A stretch of 64,000 nt of DNA from assembly GCA_026023565.1 (NCBI GenBank), contig JAPETS010000020.1:1-64000 (forward strand), written 5' to 3'. The notes below the pieces were generated by a model that had not been told where the DNA came from, did not search any database, and was given only the letters and a program-made list of their open reading frames with translations. This document shows, one piece after another, positions 7,297 through 64,000 of this stretch (position 1 is the first letter of the stretch; each line of letters begins with the position of its first letter). Source of the stretch: Cirrosporium novae-zelandiae (lineage: Eukaryota). The position numbers and the translations under genes were made by a program.

Positions 7297-9441
7297 ATGT
7301 GTGGAATCTTTGCTTGTCATTGGTATGTTGCTCTCTGTTATGTCCTCTGATCCTTGTATCCCTTCCTGGAAAATTTGATGCCGCACGTCGCCAAGAGGAC
7401 AATGCTGACACCCTGCTTGCAGTCATCCTGATGTGGTTGCGTTTAAGCCCACGGCGCTGAAGATGGCGAAGGCGTATGTTTCTTCCCTTGATCAATTGGT
7501 AGCATCAGACAACTGATTTGGTGTTTCCAGCGTGCGGCATCGTGGCCCGGATTGGAGTGAGTCAATGGATAGTCTTGAAAAGTGAAAAATATTGATCGCG
7601 TGTAATGTAGGTGGAAACTACATCGGGGGCCAAACAAGTACACCACAACCATGATTGTCGCAAAGTAGACCCATACTTACATGGTGTATAGTTCTTGCTC
7701 ATGAGCGTTTGAGTATTGTCGGTGTTGGTAGGCTATTGCGACAGTCTGTTCTAAGGGGACAAATTATACTTATTGTTTGTAGACAGTGGAGCTCAACCCC
7801 TTACCAACGAAGATGACAGTCTGGCACTGGCCGTCAACGGCGAGATATACAACCACCGAGTGCTTCGAAAACACCTGAAAAACCCATACCCATTCAAGAC
7901 TCACTCCGATTGTGAAGTCATCATTCCCCTCGTGAGTATGGCATAATATATTTGGCGCCCATAGTGATTTCCTACAGTATATGGAACATGATATCGATGC
8001 TCCAAAATTCCTCGACGGCATGTTTTCATGGGTTCTGTATGATAAGAAGCAAGATCGCACAATCGCTGCAAGAGATCCAATTGGTGTTACAAGCTTTTAC
8101 CAGGGATGGTCAAGCAAGACCCCTGATGCTACCTATTTCGCCTCCGAATTAAAATCCTTACACCCTGTTTGCGACAAGATCATATCTTTCCCTCCCGGTC
8201 ACATCTATGACTCGAAAACCAAACAGACAACAAGATATTTCCAGCCAAAATGGTGGGATCCCACCAACGTTCCCAAGACGCCCGTAGACCTTAAAGCGCT
8301 GAGACATTCGTTGGAGCAGTCTGTTCGGAAGCGACTTATGGCCGAGGTTCCTTACGGTGTTCTTCTCTCAGGAGGTCTTGACTCAAGCTTGACTGCATCC
8401 ATCGCTCAACGTGAAACTCTTCGTATACAGTCATTACACAACGAAGATGCAGATGCATTAGTTGGAATCGACGACAACGGCGAACTCTCCACCGGCTCTT
8501 ACCTCCCTCAACTCCGATCGTTTTCAATTGGTCTACCTAACGCTCCAGACAGCAAAGCCGCCAAGGAAGTCGCCAAATTCCTCGGCACCAAACATTATGA
8601 TTTCACCTTTACGATCGATGAGGGACTGGATGCTCTCTCAGATGTGATTTATCATCTGGAAACTTACGATGTTACTACTATTCGCGCATCCACACCCATG
8701 TTTCTGCTTAGTCGTAAGATCAAAGCGATGGGTGTTAAGATGGTTCTCTCTGGTGAGGGTAGTGATGAAATCTTTGGTGGATATCTCTACTTCCATGCTG
8801 CTCCTTCCAAAGAGGCCTTCCACGCCGAATGTATTCGCAGAGTCAAGAACTTGCATCTTTCAGATTGCCTCCGTGCTAACAAATCCACCTGTGCATGGGG
8901 TGTTGAAGCACGTGTCCCATTCCTTGACAAGGAATTCCTGGAACTTTCCATGGGAATTGACCCTGAAGATAAGCTGATCAAACCTGGCCGCATCGAAAAG
9001 TACATACTGCGAAAAGCTTTCGACACTAGTGATGAACCTGAAACCGAGCCATACCTTCCAGACAACATCCTTTGGAGACAAAAGGAACAATTTTCTGATG
9101 GTGTAGGGTATGGATGGATCGACGCATTGAAGGATGAAGCAGAGAAAAAGGTTACTGATGAGATGATGAAAAATCCAAGAAAGGAGTGGGGTGATGATAT
9201 TCCCGATAGCAAGGAGGCATATTGGTACCGGTGTATGTTTGATGAGCTGTTCCCATCGTATTGTGCCAAGACAGTGATGCGGTGGACACCTACGTGGAGT
9301 AACCAAACGGATCCAAGTGGAAGGCAAGTACTCGATATCGGCCGAGTTTCTTCAAAGAGAGGCAGATTGCTAACCTTGAATATCTTTAGGGCTATTGCTA
9401 CACATGTTGCTACTTATGGGTCGGGTGAAGAGAAGAAGTAA
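7297..9441 (+). CDS. ASN1/ASN2: Asparagine synthetase, glutamine-hydrolysing (8 exons, five very short 5' exons, last intron GC-AG)
   Basis: N-terminal MCGIF (Ntn Cys2), [41 protein letters not shown] and [12 protein letters not shown]; the exons can be spliced in frame. Confidence 0.97.
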
Positions 9442-9619
9442 GGGAAAAAGATAGCTCGTAAGATACCATAAGGTGTGATAGATGTACCAGAAATGGTCGC
9501 ACGAAAGCAATTGCATTGAATTAATATGGTTTGTTGCCTTCTCTGGTAGGCAGATTTCACTTCCCTCTTCTCTCAATCAAAAAATAAACGAAACGAAATC
9601 TCATTGATATAAATAAAGC

Positions 9620-9626
9620 AAAAAAA
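9620..9626 (-). terminator. RNA polymerase III oligo(T) terminator of the atypical tRNA gene
   Basis: A7 on the + strand (T7 on the - strand) 10 nt after the discriminator base. Confidence 0.6.
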
Positions 9627-9635
9627 GTATATTGA

Positions 9636-9749
9636 TGCCCAAGGCTGGATTTGAACCAACATCTTCACAATTCATGCTAGCGACTCCGCCCTGTGTCAGG
9701 GTACACGCCTGCGTAGGCTTGTGACATTCTACCGTTAAACCACTTGAGC
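9636..9749 (-). tRNA. Atypical intron-containing tRNA gene (43-nt intron at 9713-9671); nominal anticodon CCT, Gly-like body, non-canonical A32/G33
   Basis: Minus strand folds as GCTCAAG/CTTGGGC acceptor stem, GTTT/GAAT D stem, TCACA/TGTGA anticodon stem and GTTGG-TTCAAAT-CCAGC T arm. T8, A14, G18, G19 and the A15:T48 Levitt pair are present, with a T7 Pol III terminator about 10 nt downstream. Confidence 0.7.
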
Positions 9750-10329
9750 TGTTGTTAAAAGGTAGGCAGTAAGTGTTTATTTAAGGATCACCGCTGATTG
9801 TGATGTTGGTCGGAGCCTTTAGGGTAAGAGGCCTTGCTGTGGCCCTTGCTCTCAACTTCTCGCCGACATATATCTCAAGATGGTACAGAGGACATTTTGA
9901 CTTAATACTTTCGCTCGGTATTACGTTTATCTCTTCCTAATGAGATAATCTCGCGTCATTAAATATCCTGAAGGTCTTGCATATGCCACCATACTTTTAT
10001 ATCATGTCATAGGAATACAACTAACGACAACCGTATTCGCATTCAATTCGAAGATCATCTTGAACCGTTTAGAATCAACACTGCAATCTGGTCCTAAATC
10101 GAACATTCTTCTGTTCTGCTAGCTTTTACCAGCCAGATAAGAGCATGAATCTCATTATTGACGTGATTTGTCATGGAGATTTGCTAAGAAATTTCTACTA
10201 CTTCCTGGCCTCTTTTGATCCTCTCCTTTGTCTCCTTGCTTTCATGCTCATAGTAATGGGAAGCTATAAAATACTGGTCCAGGAACCCAAAGCAACAAGA
10301 ACTGAAAAGACTAACCTCAACACGCAAGT

Positions 10330-11226
10330 ATGGACATGGAAATAGATACAGAAGAATCGCGGCAAGTACTCTCAAAAGTGCCACTCATATTTTCAGTTCA
10401 CATTCTCAAGCCTTTGCTCTGAAACATTTCCCAGTTGATGTGACTTTGAATTTGAGCTTATCATGACATCCTGTTTTAACTCTAAGGTTTTATCTACTAG
10501 TGACTTTTGCTAACTCGTTGTCCAAACAGTCCTAGTGAAAATGACGAAGTTCTAGTAACTGTCCATAGTAGTGGTGATAAACCGAGTGAGAGAAAATTCA
10601 TGGCATCCAGAAGGATATTATGCCAATACTTCAATGAATGGGACACACCGACCGACACTGGTTTTTCCCTAGCAATAAATCCCCCCTATGAGCCGGTTCC
10701 GGTATTCGAGATCTTTTACAAGTGGGCGTTAGCAGACAGCCGTGGCATAGATCAAGATATCTGTGATGCAGATTTGGTCGATTTAATAGACCGCGGGATC
10801 CAGGGGGACCTAGCACGCGACCCAGAACGAATCCGCGGAGTCGAAGCAGAGATTTTGGGCGACTGGCTGGGATGGTTGGCTAGTTGTTGGTTGTTCGGGC
10901 ATGAACACTATATTACCGGATTCCAAAATCATACCATGCGTGTACTGTTCAGCATAGTTACCGGAAAAGGCAGAGGTCCAACCCTATCTCCAGACTTAGT
11001 AGACAATATATTTTACGAGAGCTCGGACGACAATAGGCTTCACCTTTTCGCGATAAAGGCATTCATCCACGGAGGCTACACATACAAGCTAGAGAGGCGC
11101 TGGGCGATGATCCATCGCGATTTCCCTGAAAAAGTATTCCAGATTCTTTCCCAGGGATCGTCATGTCCATCGCTAGATATCAAGGATTTCTTGGTCTCCG
11201 ACGAAGATAATATTAGGGAAGACTAG
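10330..11226 (+). CDS. Hypothetical protein with a probable degenerate fungal BTB/POZ-like domain (5' exon uncertain)
   Basis: ORF 10507-11226 has a splice acceptor (GCTAAC...AACAG at 10529) and a BTB-like pattern VLVTV...KFMASRRILCQYF...VFEIFYKW...CWLFG...FQNHTM. A tentative first exon 10330-10361 joins in frame only through a GC donor. Confidence 0.6.
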
Positions 11227-15102: not shown

Positions 15103-18100
15103 TCACCTCAACCCCTGCATCCGAACCAACTCCCCATACACTCCGCCCCTCCTCCCAACCAATTCCTCATGCTTCCCCCACTCCACAAGCCTCCCCCTTT
15201 CCAACACACAAATAACCCCCGCCCTCCTCACCGTGCTCAACCGATGCGCAATCGCAATCGTAGTTCTATGCTGCGTGGCAGTGTCTAGGGCTGCTTGCAC
15301 CAGGGCCTCGGATTCCGTATCTAGTGCAGAGGTTGCTTCGTCTAGGAGGAGGATTCTGGGGTTGCGGAGGAGGGCGCGGGCGATGGAGAGGCGTTGCTTT
15401 TGGCCGCCGCTTAGGAGGGTGCCGCTGGAGCCGATGGGGGTTGAGAGGCCGGAACTGAGGGGTGGAAGGGGGGTTAGTTGGTTTTTTTATTAGTGCTGTT
15501 GCTGCTGCTGCTTTGTCGAGTGACGGGAGTAGTGGTTGGTGGTGCTGTGTTGAGGGGTGGGTGAATGGGTGGTAGGGAAGGAACGAAAAAAAAAGTGGGA
15601 TAGCTTACGGAAGAGAAGCAATAAAATCATAAATATTCGCCTGCTTGCAAACATCAATGATAGCATCATCGTCGACCTCCTGGCCCGCCAATCCAATAGC
15701 GATATTCTCACGAATAGTACCCGAGTACAACGTTGGCTCCTGACTAACCAGTGATATCATCCGACGGTACTGGTTGACATTGAGTTTTGAAATGTCCTGG
15801 CCGTCGACCTTGACGAGGCCGCTGGTCGGGTCGTAGAACCGCTCGATCAGCGAGACCAAAGTGCTCTTTCCGCACCCGCTCGGGCCCACCAGCGCAACGT
15901 ACTGGCCCGCCTCTATCGTGAGGTTGAAGTTGTCGAGGGCGAGTCGGTCGGGTCGTGATGGGTAGCGGAAGCTCACGTTTTGGATTTCGATTCGGCCTTT
16001 GCAGCTTGATTTTTCGATTTGGAGGTCAGTGGTGCTGTCTTTGGTGGTGCTGTCTGTGGTGGTGGTGGTAGTGGTGTTGTTGATGTGAGGTTTCCGTTTG
16101 AGAATTTCCGTTAGTTCTTGCGCGGCATGCATCGCTTTGCTCGCATCTGGCGCGTAGGAAAAGATGGATCCTGCGATTTGAGACCCCGATATCAGCGCGA
16201 CGAAGCAGATGTAGAATTGGAAGAGCGAATATTCGCCCTCTGCTATCAGCGTGCCGCCGTACCAGAACGCCAGTGCTGCGCAGAGGAATACGACCGACTG
16301 TGACGCGGCGAAGAGACTGGATGCCAGGAGGATCGACCGCAGAGACTTTACCGCTTGCTGGGCTAATATCCCATCGTACTGGACAAGGACAAACTCTTCG
16401 AGCCCGAGAGACGCCACAGTCCTCACGGATCCTACCAGCTCGCTGGCATACGCTGCCGAGTCTTGTCCGCTTTGTCTGATTTTGGAATCGAATACCGCTA
16501 GCATTTGGAGACGGACCCAGCCGCAGGCTACTACCACAGGTATGGTGGCGGTGCACACGAGGGCGAGTTTCCACCCGATAGCAATGGAGAGCACAATGCC
16601 CGTAATTATTGTCGAGATAAATGTCAGAACCCCACCGATGACGGGTCCACTTAGGTTGGTGATATCCTGCGTGCTTGTAGATAGCAGGCTGATGAGCGCT
16701 CCAGTGGAATGTGGCTTTTCATCAAAAAAGCTAATGTCTTGTGACATTATCGACCGGAAGCATAGGTCTCTAGCACGACGAGAGAGTCGCTCTGTTGAGT
16801 AAGAGAAAGACACCCCTACTCCCATCCAGAATATCAAGGCCACGCCCGCCATCATAAAGTACAAGCCAGACCAGAAATCGACCTGGCTTCTAAGCCGACC
16901 ATACTGCGAAGGAGGCAATGCTATGACTGCCAATAGTTTCGCAAATAGCAATGATTGTCTAGAGACGTATTAGCTGGTAGAAGCGAAATCATTTTGGGAG
17001 TTGATGGGGATTGACAAACACTGGAATGCCAAAACCGGCAATGATAGCACAGACAAGGCCAATAATTAATAGAGTACGCTCCTTACTGTTCAGCCGCCCG
17101 ATGAATATGAGGGTACGTGTCAGACTTAATTTGGTTTGCTTCTTGGCCTTTGTTGGTGAACTTGGTCCTGATTCAACATCATCGGCCAAAACATCTTCTG
17201 ATTTGTAAGCTCTCATCCCCTCTTTTGAAGAAGCATGAGCTACATCGCTGTCCTGGTCTTCAAACCGGAGTTCGTTCTTTTCATCTTCGTCGTCATCTTC
17301 TTTTATAGCTCGACGGGAGCCTTCGATCTGTTGTTTCTGCACCAAGCTAGCATAGAGACCATTTCGAGCGATGAGCTCATCATGCAGACCTTGCTCTACC
17401 ACTTGGCCTTTTGCCATGACGATAATATTATCAGCATTACGAATAGTGGATAAACGATGCGCAATCACAATCGTGGTTCGATGTTCTGCTGCTGTATCGA
17501 GCGCCTGCTGGATTGTGGCCTCTGACTTTGAATCCAGGGCTGAGGTTGCTTCATCCAGCAGAAGAATCGGTGGATTGTTTATCAGAGCTCGCGCTATGGC
17601 AATACGCTGCCGTTGGCCTCCAGAAAGCTGTAATCCCTTCTCACCAACTTGTGTTTGGTAGCTATCCGGCAAAGCCGCAATAAAGTCATGTGCATTTGCC
17701 TTCTGTGCGGCGACTATAACATGTCCTTCGATCTCTTTTTCCGATAGCTGGGACGGTGAATTAACAAGTCCATATCGAATATTATCAAATATTGTCGTGT
17801 TGAATAGAACAGGCTCTTGACCGACGAGGGACATTTGACGACGTAGCCAGTGAAGATTGAGCGATTGAATGTCCTGTCCGTCCAGCACTTTGAAAATTAG
17901 CTGTTTACATAGGCATTTCTCCTTGGCACGCTGAACCACTTACAAATTTGGCCTCTGTTTGGCTCATAAAACCTTTCAAGCAACCCGATGATACTGCTCT
18001 TTCCACTTCCCGAAGCCCCTACAATGGCCGTCGTCTTCATCGCTGGACACCTAAAAACAACATTATCTAGTACGACTACATCATCCCGTGATGGATATAC

Positions 18101-19273
18101 AAGACTAACGTCTCGAAGTTCAATGTCTCCCTTGACGTGATTAAGCTGCTCTCCGCTTGATGCAAATGGATCCTGTGGAGAGCGTCGAGCTATTGCTTTG
18201 AGAACAGCACCTGCGCTCGCTATGCTCGAGGTGAGGGCTTGAGCAGAAGGGGCAACTCTAACAATCGCAAAGGCCCCAATGGTCACGGCCAGTGTAGTAG
18301 TAGTAAGTTCTGAAATAGATACCTCTCCCTTCACCAGAAATTGAGAACCTGCCCAAAACGACAGAGCATATGCCAGACATGGCATAGCATTTGACCAGGC
18401 TATCATCACTGAGACGGTGTTTCGAGCTTTGATTTCTGGCCTTGCAGCATCGGTCAAGCACGAATAGTATCTTTTAGCGAGGAGCTCCTGGATACCAAAT
18501 GCAGAGACATGTCTCGCAGAAGCGAAAGCTTCTTCGGCCAGACCAGAAGCACGGCTATAAATTGCCATGGCCCTCTTGTGGTATTTGACTGTATAGGCAC
18601 CTCCAATGGCACCAGTGACAATCATGACAACGAAAGTGGGACTGAGAATTAAAGCTGTTTTCCAATACATAATGAAAGCAATAACAAAAGCTGCGCCAAA
18701 TGTCGCAACCGCATTCAACGCTATGGAAATCTTGCTCGTGATACCCTCTTGAATGAGACCCATATCAGACATGATGCGAGTGGTAATCTCGCCAGGACGA
18801 AGAAGATCGAAAAATGCAATGTTCTGCCGTAGTATTGCTTTGAGGTAAGCTCGCCGAAGGGCACGCGCCATGCGCTCTCCGACATAGTAGAACCCGACGG
18901 TTGAAAGGTAAATAAAAACGAAGATGGCGATGGCAAGGTAGATATAGTACAGACTGTAGGTTGAGATCTTGGACCGCAGCTGCGAACCAGAAACGGAACC
19001 AGCAGTGAAGCCATCAAACACACCGACCAGTTGACCATAAATGACCTGAACAGGGTATTAGGACCGCATTTGTGTTCTGAGAGGAAAAACTACCGTCAAG
19101 AGGGGATTTAGAGCACCAGCGATAACGGCGCTAAGGGCACTGATGAAGAGGATAAATTTGTCGGACAAAGTGGTATATGTAAACACAGTCCTTTTGCCCC
19201 TCTCTGGCTGACTAGGCAAGCCATTTAGCTGGCGGTCTAATATCTCCCTTTCCTGCTCGTCAAGATGCATCAT
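15103..19273 (-). CDS. Full-length ABCB/MDR-type ABC transporter (TMD-NBD-TMD-NBD, 5 exons)
   Basis: Walker A motifs GASGSGKS and GPSGCGKS, signatures [15 protein letters not shown] and [15 protein letters not shown], Walker [13 protein letters not shown] twice; four GT-AG introns keep the frame. Confidence 0.95.
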
Positions 19274-19507
19274 TGAGAGATTCTATAAACCCGAGGCAAA
19301 AGAGAAAGAAACAAAACTCGTGCAGAGAAAAAACTGCAGCATAGTTAGTAGAAAAGATTTTCTAACAAATCTCTTCATAACGTTGAACTGGTTAGTGGGA
19401 TCTACGTTAGTAAGGACTTGAGCAGCCTGCAGGTTGCCGGGATTGTAGTTGAGAGACATGAAGAATGAGGTGCTGTAACACAATGCCAAGCTGTCCTTGC
19501 ATGACAA

Positions 19508-19525
19508 TCTGACTGTCCTCTGACT
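19508..19525 (+). promoter_or_regulatory. TCTGACTG-N3-TCTGACT direct repeat in the ABC/aminotransferase divergent promoter
   Basis: TCTGACT-GTCC-TCTGACT; the same 11-bp-period architecture recurs at 22502-22519. Confidence 0.5.
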
Positions 19526-19774
19526 CTCCATCTTACTTACCCCAGTGACTTTGGAATCTCATCCATCGATATTTGCTTGTCCTGTACATGTATGTATAGT
19601 TCTTTTTGGGATATTACTATATTGCCTTATATAAGATAATAAATTATTAGAATTACAGCCAGCTTAGTGCAGGCTTAAAAATCCCTCTTTGAAATAATCA
19701 TTAATTTCAGTCTAACCATTTCACCTTCAATGCCCTTGAGAGCATTCTAATTTCGAATCTTTAGAGCTTCCAAA

Positions 19775-21285
19775 ATGAATCAATTGAACGGTACAGACGC
19801 GGAATCTCCGACAAGCAGAATCCTCCACCCGAATATTCACCATCCGAATCCAAAGGTCGTCTCGGCCAAAGGCAACTACTTGATCCTCGAGAGCGGACAA
19901 AAAGTCCTAGATGCTACTGGGGGGCCGGCAGTAGCATGCATCGGACACGGAAATGTCGAAGTCAGAGACGCGGTCGTCAGACAGATGGACCAACTCTCCT
20001 TCTGCCATGGTTTATCATTTTCAAATTCAGCCGCAGAGGAACTCGCAAGAGAAATTGTTAGTTCAACCAACGGAGTCATGGCTAGGGCAACCATAATGTG
20101 CTCAGGTGAGCAAGAAAGTAGCTCGATATATGCGAGGCTGATATATATAGTCAGGCTCGGAAGCAGTGGAGGCAGCCATGAAGCTCGCACGGCAATACGC
20201 CGTCGCTGTTGGACAGCCAAAACGGAGACGTTTCATAGCTCGAAGGGGGGCGTTCCACGGAACCACATTGGGATCTCTTGCAATGACCGCGAAAGCCGGC
20301 GTGCAAAGACCGTTCGAACCACTCCTTAACAAGGACGGTGTATCTTTCGTGTCGATGCCCAACATCTACCGCGCAATTCACGCTGGCGAGGCCATACCCG
20401 ACTACGTCTCACGACTTGCCGATGAGCTTGATGCCGAGTTTAATCGCATTGGTCCTGAGAATGTGTGCGCATTTGTTGCAGAGACGGTCAGCGGCAGTGT
20501 GAGCTAATAATTTACCCCTTCCTTTCATCTGACGATGATGGTGCAGCATCCAAGTACTAAGAGTATAGTCAACGGGCTGCCTTGCAGCCCCCCCAGGCTA
20601 TTTCCGCGCCGTTCGATCCATCTGCGACAAGTACTCCGTCCTCCTTATCCTAGATGAAGTCATATGCGGCATGGGCCGCACAGGCACCACCCACGCATGG
20701 CAGCAAGATAATGTCTCACCGGACATCCAAACTGTGGCAAAAGGTATTGCTGGGGGGTATGCTCCGATTTCGATGTTGCTGATGAACCAACGGGTCGTCG
20801 ATGGGATCGACGCTGGTGGTGGCTTTTTCAATCACGGACACACATACGGTTCGCACGCGGTATCCTGCGCCGCAGCGGTTGCAGTGCAGCGCATCGTCAA
20901 GCGCGATAACCTGCTTACGAATGTAGCGCAGATGGGAAATCGGCTGGGAGAGGGTCTACAGGCGGGGCTTGGCAGGCATCCACACGTAGGCGATATAAGA
21001 GGACGGGGACTGTTCTGGGCGGTGGAATTCGTAAGAAATAAGGAGACGAAGGAGCCGTTCGGGGCAAAGGAAGGTATTTCGAGGAAGATTAGACAAACGG
21101 GCATGAAAGAACCGTGGAATATCTCTCTCTACCCAGGCTCGGGCACAGCCGATGGAGAGTCAGGGGACCACATAATGATTTCGCCTGCATATAACATTAC
21201 AGCAGAGGAAATTGATCTGATCGTGAAGCTAGTTAAGGGGGTTGTAGAGGAGGTGTTAGGATCCCAGAAAGCAAAAATATGTTAA
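19775..21285 (+). CDS. Class III PLP-dependent aminotransferase (omega-transaminase-like, 3 exons)
   Basis: LDATGGPAVACIGHG, CSGSEAVEAAMKLARQY, AFHGTTLGSL, FVAETVSG, LILDEVICGMGRTG, PLP-lysine motif TVAKGIAGGYAP and HGHTY. Confidence 0.93.
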
Positions 21286-21317
21286 ATTATATAGATAGCA
21301 TCCTTACATAGTTTCTC

Positions 21318-22322
21318 CTACCACGCAATATCCTTGTGATCGAATGTACGGAAACCACAGTCCTTACCTTTTCCCATGCGGTCAATCTAATTTTCATGTT
21401 AGCTATAATCTCGCATCACTTAGATCTTCCACGTGCTACTCACCTCCTCAAATATTCCCTCTACCGACTCTTTCAGCGTAACCGGTGCCTCCTTCAATCC
21501 CTGTTCCACCGCCCTCGCATTCCCCATATCAGTTTGAATCCACCTAATCCACGCACGAGTGTCAACAACACCATAACCCACAGAAAAAAATGACAGCTGA
21601 CTGGATTATCAAAACCCATTCGGAAAACCTACCCTGGATGCACCACGCACACGGCCACAGCTTCTTCCATCTCCTTCCCCAACTTTCTCACCAAATAATT
21701 GCCCGCTGCCTTGCTAGTACCATAGGCAGCATCGGCCCATCCGCCCGTCTCCTCCACCCCCACTACACTTCCCACTATGCTCCCAATCGCCACAAACTTG
21801 GGATTGTCAGCCTTCTGCAAGAGCGGCCACGCCGCCTGGAACAGCAGCAAGGGAGCTAGAGAATTGACTGCCAAGGATCCCAAGAGTCTGTCGGGAGTAA
21901 CATCGAGAATTGGGACGCGAGGAGAGGAGGTACCTGCATTTGCAATGACGACGTCGATGTGAGTGACTTCGGGGTGGGTGGAGGAAAGGGCTGCAAAGGC
22001 CGAGATGGCATGGTTCACAGATAAGTCAGATCCAGCGGAGCCAGAGGGGAAGGAAAGGGGGACGTGAATCATGGTGGTCGTTGGATGGGTGGGGAGCGAG
22101 CTAAGTGACTGGGGGGTGGAAGTAAAACGGGTGGTTGCAATTACGATGTGGTGGGGGCGGAGGAGAAGGGCGGAGGTTAGGGCGTGGCCAAGACCTATAC
22201 CATATTCCGGGATGCATTAAGATGAGCCGGTTCGAGAGAGGAGTAAGGCGGATGACAAAACGGAATGGGGATACTGTACCTCGGTTGGTGCCTGTAATGA
22301 GGAATATTTTCGCTTTCGCCAT
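21318..22322 (-). CDS. Short-chain dehydrogenase/reductase (Nor-1/CsgA-like ketoreductase, 4 exons)
   Basis: Spliced TGTNRGLG cofactor motif, IDVVIANAG, catalytic YGTSK, VHPGWIQTDMG, ending HKDIAW*. Confidence 0.9.
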
Positions 22323-22480
22323 GATTCAAGGAGCTGATGAAGTGAAAATTGCGACGCTGCGGAGGGTGAGTATGACCCTTAGAATGCAATTCCTCGTCCT
22401 CTTGTAGACGATTATTCCACCCTCTCGGATTCCATCATCACTCACTTTCTCGCACGTTGAAATGGGATGGTGATGGAAAG

Positions 22481-22519
22481 TCTGACTAATTCTTATGCTT
22501 GTCTGACTGCGGTCTGACT
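22481..22519 (+). promoter_or_regulatory. Three TCTGACT copies, including TCTGACTG-N3-TCTGACT, in the SDR/P450 divergent promoter
   Basis: TCTGACT at 22481, 22502 and 22513; matches the motif in the cluster's other divergent promoter. Confidence 0.5.
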
Positions 22520-22624
22520 AGGTCGTTCAGGGACCCCAGCCACTGCTGTTCCTGCTCTTAATGATTGTAGCTCCGTGCTAGGGTTCTAGGTCCTCGGACT
22601 GTCTCTACCATCTCATGTTAAGCA

Positions 22625-24383
22625 ATGTTTCAAGCCTTATTTTCAGAGCCTTCTCAAGTTTTGCGGCGCTGCTGTGATGTCGGCAAACTCGATGTTTCAC
22701 GCCAGAATGTTTTTGTAGCCGCGATAGCCATTTCGTCCAGCTTAGTACGTTAAGATCTCACACATATCCTATTTGATTCTAATTATGCACAGTACCTCTG
22801 CTACCTGCTAGCAGTCGTGGTGTACAATGTTTACTTTCATCCTTTATCCAAGTTCCCCGGCCCCATTTGGTGGGGTGCGACTCCCATACCCTACGTATGG
22901 TATCAGATCACCGGACGGCTCCCATTTGTATATGAGCAACTCCATGAAAGATATGGGGACGTGGTTCGTGTGTTGCCTTACAAGCTCTCGTTCCGAACGC
23001 CTGCCGCCTGGAGAGACATATATCAAATCCGGCCGAAGCAAAAACTGATGACAAAAGACCCTAAGAGCCTGAAGCCAGGATCCGAGGGCGTTTACAACAT
23101 CATTACGAGCTTCAATGCAGCAGAGCATTCTCGCTATCATGGAAAGTTAAGTCCGGCCTTCTCAGCCCAGGCAGCCCAAGCGCAGGAGCCGATAGTTATG
23201 CACCACGTTGACCTGTTAATGAAAAGGCTGCACGAATGCTGTGTCAAAGGACCCCAGAACATAGTAAAATGGTCAAACATGATTTACTTTGACATCGTCG
23301 CTGATTTGACCTTTGGCGAATCTCTTCACAGTCTTGAAAAGGGGGAGCCACATTCTTGGCTCAAGGGTCTTTTTGGTAGTACGATGACTATGATCACATT
23401 TCACAGAGCGATAGGGCAGTTCCCGCATATTGCAAAGTTTTTAAAGTACTTTACTCCGCAGGTGTTGATAGACCAGCAAGTGAAACACAATGACTTTGTA
23501 CGCCAGAGCGTTGAGCACCGCATGGCATCAAAAACAGACCGTCGTGATTTTATGAGCTACATTCTCCCGTATGATGAGAATTCGGCTTCCATGAGCATGT
23601 CGGAGGTGCGAGCAACATACGGCACTCTGATGCTCGCCGGTAGCGAGAACGTGGCAACAACATTCTCGTTCACGATATACCACCTCCTCAAGAATCCAGA
23701 CGCGATGAAAAAACTCGTAAGTGAAGTCCGACACAACTTTTCCAGCGCAGATGAGATCGACTTCCGGGCGGCCAACAGTCTGAAATATATTTCGGCCGTT
23801 GTCAACGAATCTATGAGAATTCATCCGGCGGCACCGACATCTCAGCCGAGAGTTGTTCCTGAAGGTGGTGCCACTGTTGCGGGATACTGGGTTCCGGAAG
23901 AGGTAAGAATATCATTTACTTATCCTTTCGTATCCCCTCTCCAGGGGCCATTTCACATGCTAGAATTAGAAAACTTCCTGACCTCCATTTTACCTGTAGA
24001 CAAGAGTTGCAGTCCCGCCTTACTGCATGCACCACTCCCCACGATACTTCAAAGATCCCGAATCCTTCATCCCCGAGCGCTGGCTCGGCGACCCACGCTT
24101 CGACTCGGACAACCGAGGTGTATTCCATCCATTCCAATTAGGGCCCAGAGCATGTGCGGGACAAGTGTGAGTGAACTTGATGTCGACACCACCTACCAAA
24201 ACTAATCGAATTCTTAGTCTGGCGTTGGCGGAACTTCATATTGTGCTAGCAAAACTCCTGTGGAATTTTGATCTCCAGCTTGATGAGCGATGCGAAAACT
24301 GGGATGAGAATATGAAAATATTTCATCTGTGGCAATTACAACCTCTATATGTTCAGCTGCAGCCTGTACAGGAACGCATGTGA
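22625..24383 (+). CDS. Cytochrome P450 monooxygenase (secondary-metabolism type, 4 exons)
   Basis: N-terminal membrane anchor plus FHPLSKFPGP; I-helix AGSEN; ExxR (NESMR); PERW; heme-binding FQLGPRACAG. First exon 22625-22744 splices in frame. Confidence 0.94.
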
Positions 24384-29932: not shown

Positions 29933-30016
29933 AGGTCCTACCCGGAATCGAACCGGGGTTACCGGAAAGTTCTGGAAAATCAGAATCCGATGTGCTAACC
30001 GCTACACTATAGGACC
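29933..30016 (-). tRNA. tRNA-Gln(CTG) with 12-nt intron
   Basis: GGTCCTATAGTGTAGCGGTTAGCACATCGGATTCTGA[intron]TTCCGGTAACCCCGGTTCGATTCCGGGTAGGACCT forms a canonical cloverleaf. Confidence 0.95.
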
Positions 30017-38351: not shown

Positions 38352-39882
38352 ATGAAGTCGACATTTACAACTTTCGCTTTATCAGCATGGCTACTTGCAA
38401 TCTTTGTTACCCTGGAGGGTGTAGACGCCCTGGATATGGCATACTGTTCGAGCGATAATACCGGTTCCGACAATGATGAGAGTAAGTAGTTCTCTGCTCC
38501 AAGGCTCGAAAGAAGGAAGGTTCTAACAGCTTCAAAGTGACGAGTACCTACCAGTCAAATGGCCTTTGCTATAATAATTGTATAGATGACTATGCTTTTG
38601 CTATCCTACAAGCCAAAGGTTGCTGGTGCTCAAATTATGCTCCCTCTGATACTGTCAAAACCTCCAAGTGCGACGACGCCTGTCCAGGTTATCCCTCCGA
38701 CACATGTGGCAATAGTGACGAAGGATTGTATGGCTATATTTCCTTGACCTTGAGTCCCTCAGGGACCCAAGGAGCATCGAGTTCCACTTCAACAACTACC
38801 AGCGATACGGTCAGTATTCCAATCCGCTATCTCTCCTTCCTACCCTACTTTCATTGGAGTGTTTTCTAGGGGGTTCAAGGCTTATAAGAGCACCTTTTAC
38901 TTTTTTAATTCCATAGCTTTTCATTTTTCGGTCGTAGCTATTCCTATTTCTCATTTTCAAAAATTTCCAATTTTGACAGCTCCCCTGCAGAGTTCGTCTT
39001 CCACTTCGTCTACTTCAACTTCGAGTTCTACTCCGGAGGAGATTACCGTGGTTCAAACTGTTACTGCCTCGCCCATTGGCGAGTCATCTACGGATTCTCC
39101 TGTATGATCCCTCCTTTCTTATTGTTTCTTTATGGACTCTATATTTCAACCGGAGATGAAAGTATACATTCAAGTATATAAAACTAATATGGTCCAGACC
39201 ACTACAAAAACAGCCACCACTTTAAAAACCACAACCACACATACTTCTACCTCGACTACCTCTACCGACACATCCACTGATGATAGTACTGCAACATGGA
39301 CACCTACTCCAGTAATTTCCCTTGTTACCGTGACAGGTCACGTACAAACAATGACAGTGACCCCAACCTCACCTCCAACTTCTTCCTCAACCTCTTCTGC
39401 AGACTCCAAGTCAAGTGGACATTCGTTCTGGTCCAGCCCTGGAAAGGTTGCGGGGACGTTTATCGGGATTGGTCTGGTGGTCATTGCAATAATAATCTCT
39501 GGGTTCTTATACCTTCGACGCCGTTCCCAACAATTAACCGGAAATCAAACCGTCATGTCCGACGACCCTCTAATACGCAACGGAAGCAAACATAGTAATT
39601 TCACACTATCTTCGGGTGAAAAATTGGGTGGGTTTGGTCGCGGTGATTCTGAAAATAGTGGTGAGCCGGGTAGTTCTTCCACGAACCGCCAAAGCTACCT
39701 TCGCAAATATGATCAAAGGCTAGAGCCCACGAGAGTATTCAAGGCCGAAAACACCAGTCGAATAAGTCTTCAAAGCTTTCAAGATGATCAAGACTATTCT
39801 CGACGTGTACTAACTGTGAGTTCTATAAGTCATAATATTATATTTTTACTAACAGTAATAGGTTGCAAATCCCGATGCATAA
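38352..39882 (+). CDS. WSC-domain cell wall integrity sensor (Wsc1/Slg1-like; 5 coding exons)
   Basis: Signal peptide; Cys-rich WSC domain (YCSS...YQSNGLCYNNC...CWCSNYAP...CPGYPSDTCG); Ser/Thr-rich rod; single TM (VAGTFIGIGLVVIAIIISGFLYL); cytoplasmic DQRL...DYSRRVLTVANPDA*. Confidence 0.93.
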
Positions 39883-41357
39883 GCATATCTGATATCTCTT
39901 CCGTCCAACTGAGTGCTCAGAGCGAACCGTAATATGGTCTCGGGTTTTCTGGACTTCTGCAACCCTACTTGTACTCTTATCATTTTCGGTTTTAGCGTTG
40001 GTCATACCCCAGAGGCGTTTCCTGGAACTTTACAAGGCTATGACTATTTCCAAGTCTTGCACATAAGCCGGCAAAAATGGACGGCAATTGGCGTTGTTAT
40101 TCTTTAGAATTCCCTTGTTTTGTTTTGTTTTTTTTTACATTCTAGCATATGGCCTCGGTCCAGAAACCCCACACTTTTGGGTGACCTTTTCTGTTAGGTT
40201 TTAAGATTATCCCATATTACCGCCATTAATATGTTCGGGAGTTGCTTCTGGAGAAGGGGGTGGATGATGAACCAGACACAAGCATTTGATTCTTGATCGG
40301 TTTAACGGATTGACGAAAGAGAAATCCCTCGACATTAGGAGGGACGTTCATTACGAAGAATACGAAGCGGGATAGGAATGTCTGAGAGGAAGATTCGAAA
40401 GCGAGATGGGGGAATATGTCTGTCTGAGGAAAGATGCGAAAGCAAGAATTAAAGTGGCTAGGTGATTTTTTGAGTCGAGAAGGGGGGGAACGGAACGGAA
40501 ACGGGAAGGGAAGCAAAGTAAGCGTAGATAGGAAAATGCAAACAAAACCCGGACTGACTTGACTGTGTCATATGTCCCCGATAATTTTTTTTCCCTTTGT
40601 ATTTCCCTTTGTATTTTCTTTTTTAATTTATTGGGGGGGGGGGGGGAGAGAAGAAGAAGTAAACTTACCTGTATTATTCTAATTCATTCAATATTTCAAT
40701 ATCAAAAAGAATTAGAAGAAGAAAAAAGGTCCGGTGCTTAATATCCTTGGTATTTCCGTGAGTGAGTGCAGGTGAGTGAGCAGGTTTCTTACGTGGCTTC
40801 CAAGCATCGCCCTCTCTCCTTCTCCCCATCCTCCTCGCTCTCATCTTTTTATTCATCATTTATTCCACCTAGGTGTCTATTAATTTAAGCTTGCTTTAGT
40901 TGCCTGCTTACCTGATTTTTGTTTTGTTTTGTTTTGCGTCTATGCCTGTTCCTGTTCCTTGTTTTGGTCCACATACATTACATATTGAGTAATGAATTAC
41001 ATAGCACCGTGTTTATTTTCTTATCCGTGTGGTGTGGTGTGTGGTGTGTGATATTGGTGGTGCGATATCGTAATCCCGTATTCGGATTCGGATTACTGTG
41101 GTTCCGTATCGTATCGTATTTTTTTTTTTTTTTTATCTCTGAGGGGTGAGTAAGAGGGAGGTAGTTTTGTTTGCTTTAGTAGATTCTGGTTGGTTTGGTT
41201 ATTTGGTTTTTTTATAGCATGGTGCACAGTGAGGAAGGGAGAGAGAAAAAGAGAAAAAGAGAAAAAGTGAAAAAGAGAAGAGAGAGAAAGAGAGAGAAGG
41301 GAGGAAAGAATGATATATTTTGGAGTGTCATTCATTCACCCAATTCATGCCCCTTGG

Positions 41358-44393: not shown

Positions 44394-46125
44394 TTAACGG
44401 TATCGAGGTGCATAAACAACTTCTCGCTCCGTAATTCGCTCCTCCTCGGGCCATGGCCTTTCTCTCCGAGATCGAGGTGGATGTACATCACGCTCAAATT
44501 TGATTTCTTTGATTCGTTCACGACGATCACGACGCATGTCCTCTGAGAGTGATACAAGTTGTTCGACGTCCTCCTGTGAACCCGTATATCAGTACTAAGA
44601 ACATCGAACGGGATAGCATTCCCAGGGCAACGGGAGCGGACTTACATAGCGTAGATATTCCATAACATAGAAGAAATCCTCTGTTTCTTCATAATCGTAT
44701 CCCATAGCTTCAATGGCGTCCTTAATGACAAGATCCTTGGTGATCTCTGTCCACATGCTTTCGGTTTTCGGCTTAACGCCTACATATCGTCTTCGATCGA
44801 TGCTAATTTCCCTCTCCCTTTCTCTGGCAGGTGGTGGAGATAGTGGATACTCGACATCCGGACCAAATTCATCACCATCAGTAATAAACTTTGACCTTCG
44901 CACGCCATTGTATCGTTGCCATGTAATCTCTTCTTTGCCACCACCAACACCTTCCATCTCCACTCTTTTTGTTCCTGGTGGTACATCTACGATAGCCCAG
45001 TCTTTGGTTGCACCATTGTAACCCTCGCCCATATATGATCTTTCCCGGTTCTTTCGATCATAATACTCTGCCTCTTCGGCAATAGCTCGCTCTTCCCAAG
45101 CGGGCCTGCGGCGTGGACCAGCAGAGGCGGAACGACGACGGGGAATCATTGTCCAGTCATCTTCACGATTACGATGGCGGGAATCACGATCAATAATTAT
45201 TTCATCATCATATTCACGACCATCGGCACGGGTGCCACGGCGGCGAATCTCGATAGATTCATCCACTTCACTGCGAGGAGCTGGTGGGGGTGGAGGTGGA
45301 GGAGGGAGTGGAGCGGGGGCGGCGGACATGGGACGTGGTGGAGGAACCACTTCGAAGCCTAGAATGGTTAGTCAGATTTGAGACACCAACCAGTAGCAAG
45401 TATGACTGACCATGATCAATATGACGGTGATGTGTGATAACTTCTTGGTGGATTGGTGGAGCACGGATGATGGGAGGCTCTGGCATGGGTTCGGGTGGAG
45501 GAGAGGGGGAGGGTGAGCTTGAAGGAGATCTCTTCTTCTCTCTTCGAATAATAATTTGTTCGCTTTCCTTGGGAGGTGGTCTTTTCTCTCGTTCTCGAAT
45601 TGTGATTTCTTCTCGTTCTTCTAGTCGCTCCCGAGGCGGGGGTGGTCTGTCTCCTTGACCTCTTCGAATGACAAAGTCTCGAGGTGGTGGCCTTTCTCTT
45701 GACTTGGATCGATCTCGAATGGTGATTTCCTCTCTCTCGACTTCTCGTTCTCGAGGACGATTTCTTTCGGTTCGTTTAAAAACGATTTCATCATCGTCGG
45801 CCCTCGGTCTTGATTGCCTTCTTGCAATAATTTCTTTGCGTTCTTCGACTACCGACCGAGCTCTCGGGCGTCGATATTCAATATCTTCGGTTTCTTTTTG
45901 ACGTAAGACCAACTGTCCTGAACTTGCACGAGGATGGTCTTCACGAAGAAAGTCTAGATTTCGATCGCGTGCTGGCTCACGCTCACGCACAGGTGGGGCC
46001 GGGGCAGGACGACGATGGTATTCATACTCATCGAATTCTCTCACTTCTCCCCCTCGACGAGGATCGCGATTACTATAATAATCACGCTCCTCATAGAATT
46101 CGCTTGGAGGGCCTCGACGAGACAT
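44394..46125 (-). CDS. Conserved fungal Arg/Glu/Pro-rich protein of unknown function (3 exons)
   Basis: IIRAPPIHQEVITHHRHIDHG, WAIVDVPPGTKRV, WTEITKDLVIKDAIEAMGYDYEETEDFFYVMEYLRYEDV; two GT-AG introns maintain the frame to ...APRYR*. Confidence 0.88.
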
Positions 46126-49610: not shown

Positions 49611-50306
49611 CTCACCCTGGGCTAATGACATGATGGTCCAACAAACGACTTGGAAGGGACTTGTGACTTTCTACTGACTATGTACGTTGTAGTCTAATAT
49701 TTGTAGAAAATGTCAGAAATGATATCTGGTTCGATGCCTGAGGACGTAAGGTGTCCAGAATTAAATCTTCGCTAAAACGTCGCCGTCTATTCTTTCTATC
49801 CGTACAAGTGACTCACTCAACTTGTCCCAACTTGCCCCAACTTGTCTTATCATGGTCGTTTCATACTTTTCGACTCACTGCAAAACATACAATTCTCCAG
49901 GCTGAGGTATTTGTGGCTGAGGTTTCGGTATCCGTGGCTATGTTGTGTCCGAGCCAGAGATCGAGTTTCCTTGATGCCGAGGGGGAGTCATTCTACAAGA
50001 AAAGCGTAAATCCAATATTAACATGAGAGATATAGAACTTATTCTACTTCGCTCACCGATTGAATTTGCTCCTTCCTTTCCTGTTTCGCAAATTTTGACT
50101 TTCTTTCCATCTGTTTTCTATATATTCTCAGCTTTTTCCTACTGCTAGAGCATTTCTTCACAACGTTCTTTCCAAGTGAATCACAATAGCTACATTAATA
50201 CCTAGCAGGTAAATCTGTCAAGCGCCTACTACGAAAGTCATTATACCCCGAACTACCTCACAAGCTATAATAGCTATATCTTCTAGAGTCTCCACTTATA
50301 AAAAAC

Positions 50307-51503
50307 ATGTCGACATACCAGACCACAGCTTCATCTACATCAATGGCAGAAAAAGCCCCCTCTCCCCTTTTCATCCAAGGCTCAACCCTCGAAGGAGGCG
50401 GTCAACTCGTGCGAAATGCAGTAGTCCTATCCTGTCTCACCAAAAAGCCCATCCACATCATAAACATCCGGAGCAATCGAGGCCGAGGAGGCGGGCTGAA
50501 ATCCTCTCACCTAGCAGCAGTCAATTTCCTGATGGAAGTGGCAGCCGCCAGGGTAAAAGGCAACGAGATCGGAAGCCGACAGCTCACCTTCTCACCCGGA
50601 TCAAACCAACGGCTCAAAAAAGAATACAGCATCGTCATGCAGAGCCCGGGGAGCATATGGCTGGTCTTCCAGGCCATCTATCCGTACATCCTCTTCTCCG
50701 GCATGGCCCCAGAAGGCCACACCCCCATCCGCCTACACCTCACGGGCGGAACCAACGTGTCCAAATCGCCTAGCGGCGAATACATAACCCAAGTCCTCCT
50801 ACCCACGTTCCAAAAAATGGGTCTCCCGCCAATCAGCCTGAAGATCCACAAAAGAGGATGGACGCACGGCCGACCCTCTCCTCTGGGCTCTGCCACATTC
50901 ACCATCCACCCGCTGCCCCCAACGCAATCCCACCTCCCCGCTTTCGATCTCAAATACCCCGGTGCAATAACCAAAATCGCCATCACGATCCTCGCGCCCC
51001 AAGACGTCCGCAAGAAGATCCTCATCCAAACCCAAAACGCCCTCTTCCTCGACGTCCCCACGTACGTAGAAGTAAACGAAGACTCGGGCGACCCAAAACG
51101 TCTCTACCTGCTCCTGGTGGCCCACACAGAACACGGTTACCGCCTCGGCCGGGACTGGCTCTACGACAAGAAAATCACAAACGTCGATGACGCAATTCCC
51201 GTGCTCGTGAAACAGGTTGTTTCGGATCTGACATTGGAGATTAGGAGCCTGGGGTGCGTGGATGAGTATATGGAGGATCAGGTGGTGGTGTTTCAGGCGC
51301 TGGCGCGGGGCATGTCGACTGTGGATTTGGGGAGGAAGTTTGTCGATGCGGGGGTGGTGGATGAGCATGGGAGGGAGATGGAGGAGATGGATTTGGATTG
51401 GGAACCGAGGTTGCCGAGTCTGCATACGAGGACTGCGATGTGGGTTGCGGAGAGGATTTGTGGGGCGACGTTTAAGTATGGGACTTCGTGGGGGGTTGGG
51501 TAG
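50307..51503 (+). CDS. RNA 3'-terminal phosphate cyclase (RtcA-type)
   Basis: GSTLEGGGQLVR, IRSNR...GLKSSHL, GSIWLVFQ, LTGGTNV, VDEYMEDQ and SLHTRT (His at the adenylylation-site position); ends GVG*. Confidence 0.9.
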   Translation: MSTYQTTASSTSMAEKAPSPLFIQGSTLEGGGQLVRNAVVLSCLTKKPIHIINIRSNRGRGGGLKSSHLAAVNFLMEVAAARVKGNEIGSRQLTFSPGSNQRLKKEYSIVMQSPGSIWLVFQAIYPYILFSGMAPEGHTPIRLHLTGGTNVSKSPSGEYITQVLLPTFQKMGLPPISLKIHKRGWTHGRPSPLGSATFTIHPLPPTQSHLPAFDLKYPGAITKIAITILAPQDVRKKILIQTQNALFLDVPTYVEVNEDSGDPKRLYLLLVAHTEHGYRLGRDWLYDKKITNVDDAIPVLVKQVVSDLTLEIRSLGCVDEYMEDQVVVFQALARGMSTVDLGRKFVDAGVVDEHGREMEEMDLDWEPRLPSLHTRTAMWVAERICGATFKYGTSWGVG

Positions 51504-62807: not shown

Positions 62808-64000
62808 ATGGCTAGTCGTCCTCCTAAGTACAATGATCGCAGAGAGGAGCCTCCCCGTCCAAGGGAACGACAGAATGAATATTATCTACCCATAGAAGGA
62901 ATAAGTCGCGAAGTCATCCAAGCTGACATATGTCGGTATCTTGGAAATGATGCGCTTGTTCGAGTTGGAGATTATAATGTTGGTGATGCCTGGATCCGCC
63001 GTTAACCGATAAAGCTGATGGTTCAAAAAGGGACGAAGAGGTTATATAATACGAGCTTATCGCAATTTAACAACGGTATGATTCAGCAACTTTTGCTGGT
63101 CAAAGAAACACTGCTGATGAAAAATACCAACGATAGGAAATGATTGCGGATCTGAAAGCTGATTCTGCTCGCTGGGAAAAAGAACGCTACGTGAACGAGC
63201 AGCAAGGCTACGCTTCAGGTAGCCCTGTGCCAGTTCGAGATCCAGATATGGATCGTAGTCCTGACGTTGTCACAGTGCCTTATGGTAATTCTCAAACGCA
63301 TTCCGATCGACAAACTGCAGGTCCTTCAAATTCGCCAATGCCACAGGCGCCCATGCCTACGAGGGACATGCGGGACCCACGGGACATATCTATGAGAGAT
63401 GTACCGATGAGGGATCCCCGCGATATCCGAGATCAGAGTCTTCCGTCTTATGCCCAAGGATACCAGCCACATAATCCAGCTAGTATGGATGCCGCTTATG
63501 GAGCAGTACCACCTAATTATCCCGGAGCACAGGGTCAATTTCCCGTTAGTCAAGGATACCCACCACAGCAAAGCCAGTATGGATATTCTCAACCGCCAGC
63601 AGGGTATGGTCAGGTAGCACCATCCCGTGGTCCCACAGATAGTCCAACACAACAAGAGTCGATGCAGATGTATACCACATCTACCATGGCTCCTAGACAG
63701 GAAGGGTACATGAACCCTCAAACTCATGCAGGTTTACAACCTCGCTACACACCAAATATGGATAGCAATTCACCGCAACAGGCATTTACAGAAACACCAG
63801 ATCAGCAGATGTATTTTGCCACTAGTGCATCATCAGGTGTACAATCATATCCAGTTATGGCGCCTGCCTATGGTGCATCACCCTCATCATTTGATCCAAG
63901 AGGAGAACCAAGGTACGTTGAAAATGGTGGCTTTGCCGCTGAACCCCCAAACCGCGTCCGCCATTCGGAGTCCAGAGAAGGCCCTCCCAGGAGAGATGAT
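62808..64000 (+). CDS. rfeG: RfeG-like putative transcriptional regulator (3' end beyond window)
   Basis: NEYYLPIEGISREVIQADICRYLGNDALVR / GYIIRAYRNLTT / EMIADLKADSARWE spliced across two introns, followed by a Pro/Gln/Tyr-rich tail. Confidence 0.85.

Follow-up and report, generated by a model that had tools for sequence, protein, structure and literature searches.

Few departures from U33 in the anticodon loop of tRNAs have been described, and those treated in PMC5041475 are eukaryotic initiators with C33 and the tRNA-Ser(CAG) of Candida (CUG-Ser1 clade) with G33. Like the gene described here, the latter is a fungal nuclear tRNA of elongator type whose body and anticodon belong to different isotypes, and its G33 has been proposed to make decoding less efficient (PMC5041475, PMC11415595). 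The initial annotation of our locus had pointed to the rarity of G33 and to this exception, and both are documented in these sources. There are also differences: the Candida tRNA serves a reassigned codon, is conserved throughout its clade and is charged by a SerRS that ignores the anticodon, whereas at our locus AGG still means arginine and base 32 is abnormal as well. A GlyRS, in contrast to the Candida SerRS, reads C35 and C36 (PMC9976931).

Natural mistranslating tRNAs more generally tend to carry G33 or A33. Among them, the tRNA-ProX family, with A33 and a dual identity, resembles our gene in combining a natural non-U33 loop with a mismatch of body and anticodon (PMC11415595). ProX genes, however, are bacterial and adjoin a dedicated synthetase gene, while Pfam scans of 18 open reading frames showed no synthetase gene in the window, that is, the whole stretch of 64,000 nucleotides analysed here. 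A pair between A32 and U38 is described as a tuning device that damps strong anticodons in bacterial tRNA-Ala(GGC) and tRNA-Pro(GGG) (PMC5041475). Finally, our gene shares with tRNA genes of undetermined specificity, pseudogenes and anticodon-shifted genes a good cloverleaf with a loop that ill fits its body. Shifts of the anticodon from one isotype to another have been reported for eukaryotes, with none in the yeast set of the study concerned (PMC3923123); compared with such genes, the defect in ours involves positions 32 and 33 and not the anticodon only. In the literature outside subscription journals we found no description of a fungal glycine-like tRNA with anticodon CCU and G33.

The splicing of eukaryotic pre-tRNAs provides a further point of reference. 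As set out in PMC10275265, these precursors form a bulge-helix-loop, in which intron bases pair with nucleotides 33-35 and the 3' cut falls within a small bulge. The helix is extended by the A-I pair, formed by C32 or U32 with an antepenultimate intron A or G, which is among the features recognised by SEN (PMC10275265). The Sen complex also measures distance from the tRNA body (PMC4090602).

The gene under study lies at 9636-9749 on the minus strand and is a genuine tRNA gene. With 47.4 bits it exceeds the gathering score (29) of the Rfam family RF00005, and the alignment runs end to end (model 1-71), with E = 5.2e-07 for the whole 64-kb window and 6.5e-09 for a local stretch of 801 nt, in which no other Rfam family matched at E up to 1. 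Its parts and surroundings are as follows.

9714..9749, minus strand: 5' exon with the acceptor 5' strand, D arm, G26, anticodon-stem 5' strand and loop bases A32 to A37 (RF00005 alignment, sequence)
9671..9713, minus strand: GC-rich 43-nt insert at 37/38 with a CCCTG-ACA-CAGGG hairpin and antepenultimate base G (RF00005 alignment, folds)
9636..9670, minus strand: 3' exon with U38, anticodon-stem 3' strand, AGAU, T arm (GTTGG TTCAAAT CCAGC), acceptor 3' strand and A73 (sequence, RF00005 alignment)
9718..9719, minus strand: non-canonical loop bases A32 (9719) and G33 (9718) (sequence; identical in the X1 contig, which is not independent)
9620..9626, minus strand: T7 run about 9-10 nt after A73, the expected Pol III terminator (sequence; putative role)
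9776..9784, minus strand: TTAAATAAA, a weak TATA-like element 27-35 nt upstream of G1 (sequence; optional, putative role)
Acceptor stem: GCTCAAG/CTTGGGC, seven pairs including U3.G70
D stem: GTTT/GAAT, four pairs including two G.U
Anticodon stem: TCACA/TGTGA, five pairs
T stem: GTTGG/CCAGC, five pairs including one G.U

The body of the tRNA is intact. All 21 possible pairs of the 7/4/5/5 stems are present in the sequence, 17 of them Watson-Crick and four G.U (U3.G70, G10.U25, U13.G22 and U50.G64), and none of the 42 stem bases is unpaired. Present, too, are all the core bases, namely U8, A14, A15:U48, G18, G19, A21, G26 with A44, G45, T54-T55-C56, A58 and G53:C61. The D loop counts 7 nt, the variable loop 4 nt (AGAU), and A73 serves as discriminator. 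The four stems, the invariant residues, the A15:T48 pair, the 43-nt intron at 37/38 and the T7 run that the initial annotation had listed are all found in the sequence and the RF00005 alignment.

The signals for transcription appear to be in equally good order. Judged against the A/B box consensus, both the A box candidate TGGTTTAACGG at tRNA positions 8-19 and the B box candidate GGTTCAAATCC at positions 52-62 are normal. A T run downstream of the gene is the established terminator of Pol III, and that of the CCU gene is better than the one of the tRNA-Gln gene in the same window, which also has no TATA-like element upstream. From their sequence, the internal boxes and T7 would thus make up working-looking Pol III signals. 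Default ARAGORN nevertheless misses the gene, which it finds once introns are allowed. It then places the insert at 31/32 and calls 'Ser-tga' with the loop CATGAAT and A33, a placement that we rejected: it is still without U33, and position 31/32 is not known as a site of tRNA introns in fungi.

What sets the gene apart is its anticodon loop. With the stems assigned by RF00005, the 50 nt between the arms of the anticodon stem consist of a 7-nt loop and the 43-nt insert. The insert at 37/38 leaves the loop A32-G33-C34-C35-U36-A37-U38, with A37 at 9714 and U38 at 9670 on the minus strand, and the anticodon CCU for the codon AGG. A37 satisfies the expectation of a purine at 37, but Y32 and U33 are both missing. 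Enumeration by hand showed that none of the eight placements of the 43-nt insert restores U33, the second loop base being always A or G, so the loop is non-canonical, as first annotated. Three of its positions set it off from every canonical Gly or Arg loop, and A32-G33 occurs in neither the tRNA-Gly(GCC/CCC) nor the tRNA-Arg(CCU/UCU) family. A32 can pair with U38, closing the loop to 5 nt.

Further ways to arrive at this loop were considered by hand on the sequence and rejected. Moving the anticodon-stem register by +1 or -1 produces a mismatch or a wrong loop size. A class II reading with a long variable arm and a NUMT or organellar origin were discarded as well, and RIP was discarded as the cause since each of the two loop changes would have to be a transversion. 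Nor can a canonical loop that simply received an insertion give this sequence, so that at least two events are needed. The triplet GCC at 33-35, seen earlier as a glycine anticodon one base out of register, is at least three changes away from any canonical Gly loop and therefore probably a coincidence.

Can the insert be removed in the usual way? A yardstick is provided by the only other tRNA gene in the window, the tRNA-Gln(CUG) gene at 29933-30016 on the minus strand, about 20 kb away. The CCU gene resembles such ordinary fungal intron-containing pre-tRNAs in being a Pol III gene with a cloverleaf and an insert at 37/38. In the tRNA-Gln precursor, the 12-nt intron contains CAGAA, which pairs with U32-U33-C-U-G, next to a 3-nt CUU bulge and with U32:A as A-I pair; the fold has z = -2.13, with 8 of 200 shuffles as stable. 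Such a textbook structure indicates that the organism uses the normal splicing rule. The tRNA-Gln gene itself has only four T in its first downstream T run and a T11 run about 50 nt after the gene. To our knowledge, Gln tRNA genes of budding yeast are without intron.

The CCU precursor, in contrast, with A32-G33 and an intron of 43 nt, has neither A-I pair nor 3-nt bulge. Although its antepenultimate intron base is G, base 32 is A, and pairing by hand gives the oppositions A.G, G.U, C.A, C.C and U.G from 32:(-3) to 36:(-7). There is no bulge-helix-loop and no helix beside the 3' splice site. In the minimum-energy fold, A32-U38 extends the stem to six pairs and the intron pairs internally. The CCCTG-ACA-CAGGG hairpin and the AGGC complementary to G33-U36, both singled out by the initial annotation, do exist at the 5' end of the intron, but the best fold leaves the AGGC:GCCU pairing unused and the stability is ordinary: 56 of 200 shuffles are at least as stable as the intron (z = -0.46), and 52 of 200 as arm plus intron (z = -0.56). 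Neither the hairpin nor the AGGC match exceeds what chance would give. A second intron segment, GCU at -11 to -9, is also complementary to G33; together the two weakly suggest that G33 is not brand new, though such short matches are expected by chance.

The second question concerns the amino acid that the tRNA would carry. The body recalls eukaryotic tRNA-Gly(GCC), which has the same 4-nt variable loop, and such a variable loop with a Gly-type acceptor and D arm is not typical of Arg tRNAs. GlyRS, unlike SerRS and AlaRS, reads the anticodon. Five of seven glycine features are found in the CCU gene, namely G1-C72, C2-G71, A73, C35 and G10-U25 with G45; the departures are U36 and U3.G70. They are counted against the set G1-C72, C2-G71, C35, C36, (G10-Y25):G45 and A73 given for eukaryotes in PMC9976931, which for yeast adds weight to the second and third acceptor pairs, the third being G3-C70. 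The gene is thus like eukaryotic tRNA-Gly(GCC/CCC) in both outer acceptor pairs, the discriminator, G10-U25:G45 and the variable loop, and unlike it at 36 and 3:70. The glycine-like body that had been claimed holds for most identity features, though not for these two, and judged by its sequence the body may be called glycine-like.

The anticodon leans the other way. C35-U36-A37 is shared with tRNA-Arg(CCU/UCU), from which the gene differs at base 38 and probably in the length of the variable loop. For yeast, C35 followed by U36 or G36 is described as prominent for Arg identity, with base 73 dispensable and position 20 marginal (PMC9976931), and the CCU gene has this C35-U36 determinant. Of the features in the eukaryote Arg row of Table 1 in the same source (20/20a, A38), it has U20, the position that is marginal in yeast, but no 20a in its 7-nt D loop and U at base 38. 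Since GlyRS depends on C36 whereas ArgRS recognises C35-U36, a mature product, if made, would more likely be charged with Arg.

The exact 19-nt D arm was also found at 14 loci in metagenome contigs, a small, prokaryotic set biased by the seed that gives only a hint of glycine-likeness: five loci are tRNA-Gly(UCC), two of them with inserts, and none is an Arg tRNA. The remaining ones are three tRNA-Pro(GGG), one tRNA-Trp, two copies of an unclassified tRNA-like sequence and three without a tRNA. No fungal orthologue of the gene was among these 14 loci, and a search of prokaryote genome contigs with the 22-nt T arm plus acceptor end returned no match. Two of the loci (L003, at about 981-1110, and L006) are archaeal-type tRNA-Gly(UCC) genes with the same D arm, in which the anticodon region is followed by a long insert; both are skipped by default ARAGORN, which does call the intron-less versions L010, L012 and L014. 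The unclassified sequence (L004, L011) has a proper T arm and an odd middle part; the tRNA genes clustered around it are ordinary, but it receives no ARAGORN call itself.

How is AGG itself used? Codon counts from 13 long, Pfam-supported ORFs (5652 codons from stop to stop, some non-coding ends among them) gave 44 AGG, 67 AGA and 201 CGN, so that AGG makes up 44 of 312 Arg codons and about 0.8% of all codons. Four proteins with 27 AGG codons were compared with solved structures (PDB); 12 of these codons fell inside the displayed alignments and 15 outside. The top-hit residue facing the 12 was R three times, K four times and S, E, T, I and N once each, but never G. Those facing R are phosphatase residues 168 and 198, both R in synaptojanin too, and residue 362 in the ERFY motif of the ABC transporter. 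With none of 12 aligned codons at Gly and seven at R or K, AGG serves as an ordinary Arg codon in this window and its reassignment to Gly is excluded, in a check to which low-level ambiguity is invisible.

The genes around the locus are eukaryotic, in what looks like fungal DNA, and the G+C content is 44.6%. The neighbours have spliceosomal introns and include Pex19, asparagine synthase, an ABC-B transporter, a P450, DNA polymerase eta and others; the tRNA gene sits downstream of the asparagine synthase gene. The nearest protein-atlas clusters are mostly ascomycete, which we take as a lead only. Some further features of the window may be recorded. An RtcA-type gene for an RNA 3'-terminal phosphate cyclase lies at 50274-51500 on the plus strand; among solved structures it is closest to RtcA of archaea and bacteria (E = 4.7e-29, compared with 6.3e-05 for an Rcl1-like protein), and six of the seven AGG codons of this ORF fall within its last 90 codons. 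At 15600-24200, an ABC-B (MDR-type) transporter spread by introns over three frames adjoins a class-III aminotransferase and a cytochrome P450, and the three may form a small cluster of metabolic genes. Long ORFs without a Pfam match, 240 to 288 codons in length, are located at 10504-11223 (+), the nearest upstream neighbour of the CCU gene, and at 39108-39929 (+), 44598-45371 (-) and 63137-64000 (+).

We consider it most plausible, with a probability of roughly 0.55, that this is a CCU tRNA gene which can be transcribed but is impaired in decoding and in splicing, and is disabled or nearly so. Its transcript would be a cloverleaf pre-tRNA with the 43-nt insert at 37/38, from which canonical excision would yield a 71-nt tRNA with the anticodon CCU. 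A loop without U33, and hence without a U-turn, and without a pyrimidine at 32 would decode poorly. The absence of the A-I pair and the 3-nt bulge that the splicing endonuclease reads would make splicing poor as well, and the mature decoder would be made little or not at all. Any mature product would probably be charged by ArgRS via C35/U36 and be harmless, because Arg is cognate for AGG, and AGG would mainly be read by other Arg tRNAs, presumably encoded elsewhere in the genome.

Several observations favour a disabled gene. The lack of U33, Y32 and the A-I pair, together with an intron that folds no better than shuffles, provides two independent signs of impaired function, and the normal use of AGG and the small number of published U33 exceptions point in the same direction. 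Given two wrong loop bases and an insert without the usual splicing signal, a recently disabled copy is more likely than a new kind of decoder. In Saccharomyces cerevisiae, one or two tRNA-like genes that fold well but lack a determined specificity are retained, and the yeast can do without its only tRNA-Arg(CCU) gene. A CCU gene that has been crippled can thus survive in a genome.

On the other side stands, above all, the flawless body, which decay by three independent hits to the loop should have damaged. The loss would thus have to be very recent, or 32 and 33 were changed in one event, which their adjacency could allow, and U38 is a normal base. It also has to be considered that the gene was noticed because of its loop, which is a selection bias. 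The initial annotation had taken the intact stems as an argument for selection; intact they are, but a very recent loss would look alike. Intact promoter boxes and a good terminator also speak against a disabled gene, as do the working natural tRNAs with G33 or A33 reported in PMC11415595 and the role of A32-U38 as a tuning device in the bacterial tRNAs of PMC5041475.

These last points lead to the alternative that survives best, although we regard it as doubtful: a working but deliberately weak tRNA-Arg(CCU), spliced by the ruler of the endonuclease, charged by ArgRS via C35/U36 and decoding AGG at low efficiency, with A32-U38 and G33 as a throttle. It would account for the intact body, promoter boxes and terminator and for a codon in normal Arg use, whereas neither a variable loop of 4 nt nor an acceptor and D arm of Gly type is known to be typical of Arg tRNAs. 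In its favour, C35 and U36 are prominent yeast determinants that do not need base 73 (PMC9976931), the Sen complex gauges distance from the tRNA body (PMC4090602), and A32-U38 tunes down strong anticodons in known tRNAs (PMC5041475). However, the exceptions treated in PMC5041475 offer no precedent for G33 in an ordinary cognate elongator, and the A-I pair, described as a SEN recognition feature (PMC10275265), is absent.

A role outside translation seems unlikely. The gene might act as a Pol III/TFIIIC chromatin element, as a source of tRNA fragments or of a free intron, or as a non-ribosomal Arg carrier, which would suit a gene that has kept its body and Pol III signals but not its decoding loop; such roles have been raised for unused yeast tRNAs (PMC11415595). 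No positive sign of them was seen: the structure of the intron is within chance and no other Rfam family matches.

The boldest proposal is a long shot. It would make the gene a second independent fungal elongator with G33, in which a Gly-type body has captured the Arg anticodon CCU, is held down by A32-U38 and G33, and is under selection as an ambiguous decoder of AGG or as a non-ribosomal carrier. If true, the earliest stage in the capture of a sense codon could be watched here in a living organism, outside the CUG clades.

Improbable, too, is a mistranslating hybrid from a time when the ambiguity of the codon is only beginning, whose Gly-type body and CCU anticodon would bring some Gly to AGG while G33 limits the damage, as has been suggested for the tRNA-Ser(CAG) of Candida. 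The five of seven published Gly identity features would fit, as would the 19-nt D arm, which where it lies in a recognisable tRNA is mostly found in tRNA-Gly(UCC) (five of the 14 loci) and never in an Arg tRNA, and natural mistranslating tRNAs often carry G33 or A33 (PMC11415595). GlyRS, however, needs C36 and, in yeast, the third acceptor pair (PMC9976931), where this gene has U36 and U3.G70. The reading of the anticodon by this enzyme, the lack of AGG codons at aligned glycines, the poor splicing signals and the abnormal base 32 all count against it, and the mistranslating tRNA considered in the initial annotation is weakened by the same codon alignment, by C35 and U36 pointing to ArgRS and by the missing A-I pair.

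A sequencing or assembly error in the anticodon loop is very improbable. The locus was found in one public run alone, X1, which is not an RNA run; the Logan contig of this run (word depth 349), built independently, agrees with the assembly at 1201 of 1201 bases including A32 and G33, although X1 is possibly the source of the assembly and the agreement is then not an independent confirmation. It argues against an assembly or polishing slip, and two adjacent bases would need to be wrong. In the runs X2 and X3 of the same study, a search with 9000-10200 at 80% likeness recovered only short pieces of asparagine synthase (9019-9215), leaving the tRNA uncovered. A frameshift-suppressor tRNA, for which only the displaced GCC could be cited, is hardly credible, as the spliced loop has the normal 7 nt while known frameshift suppressors have 8-nt loops.

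Taken as a whole, the interpretation given in the initial annotation, which had proposed a tRNA that is non-translational or of low efficiency, one that shifts frame or mistranslates, or a gene in recent decay, is partly supported. If the gene is a recent casualty, this is an ordinary caveat for annotation, which should mark it as a probable pseudogene rather than count it as the AGG decoder of the genome. If, however, A32 and G33 prove conserved and the RNA spliced and charged, this would be only the second type of elongator with G33 known in eukaryotic nuclei. It would then provide a substrate to ask whether the fungal splicing endonuclease can work in the absence of the A-I pair, and possibly a way to study how a sense codon starts to pass from one amino acid to another.
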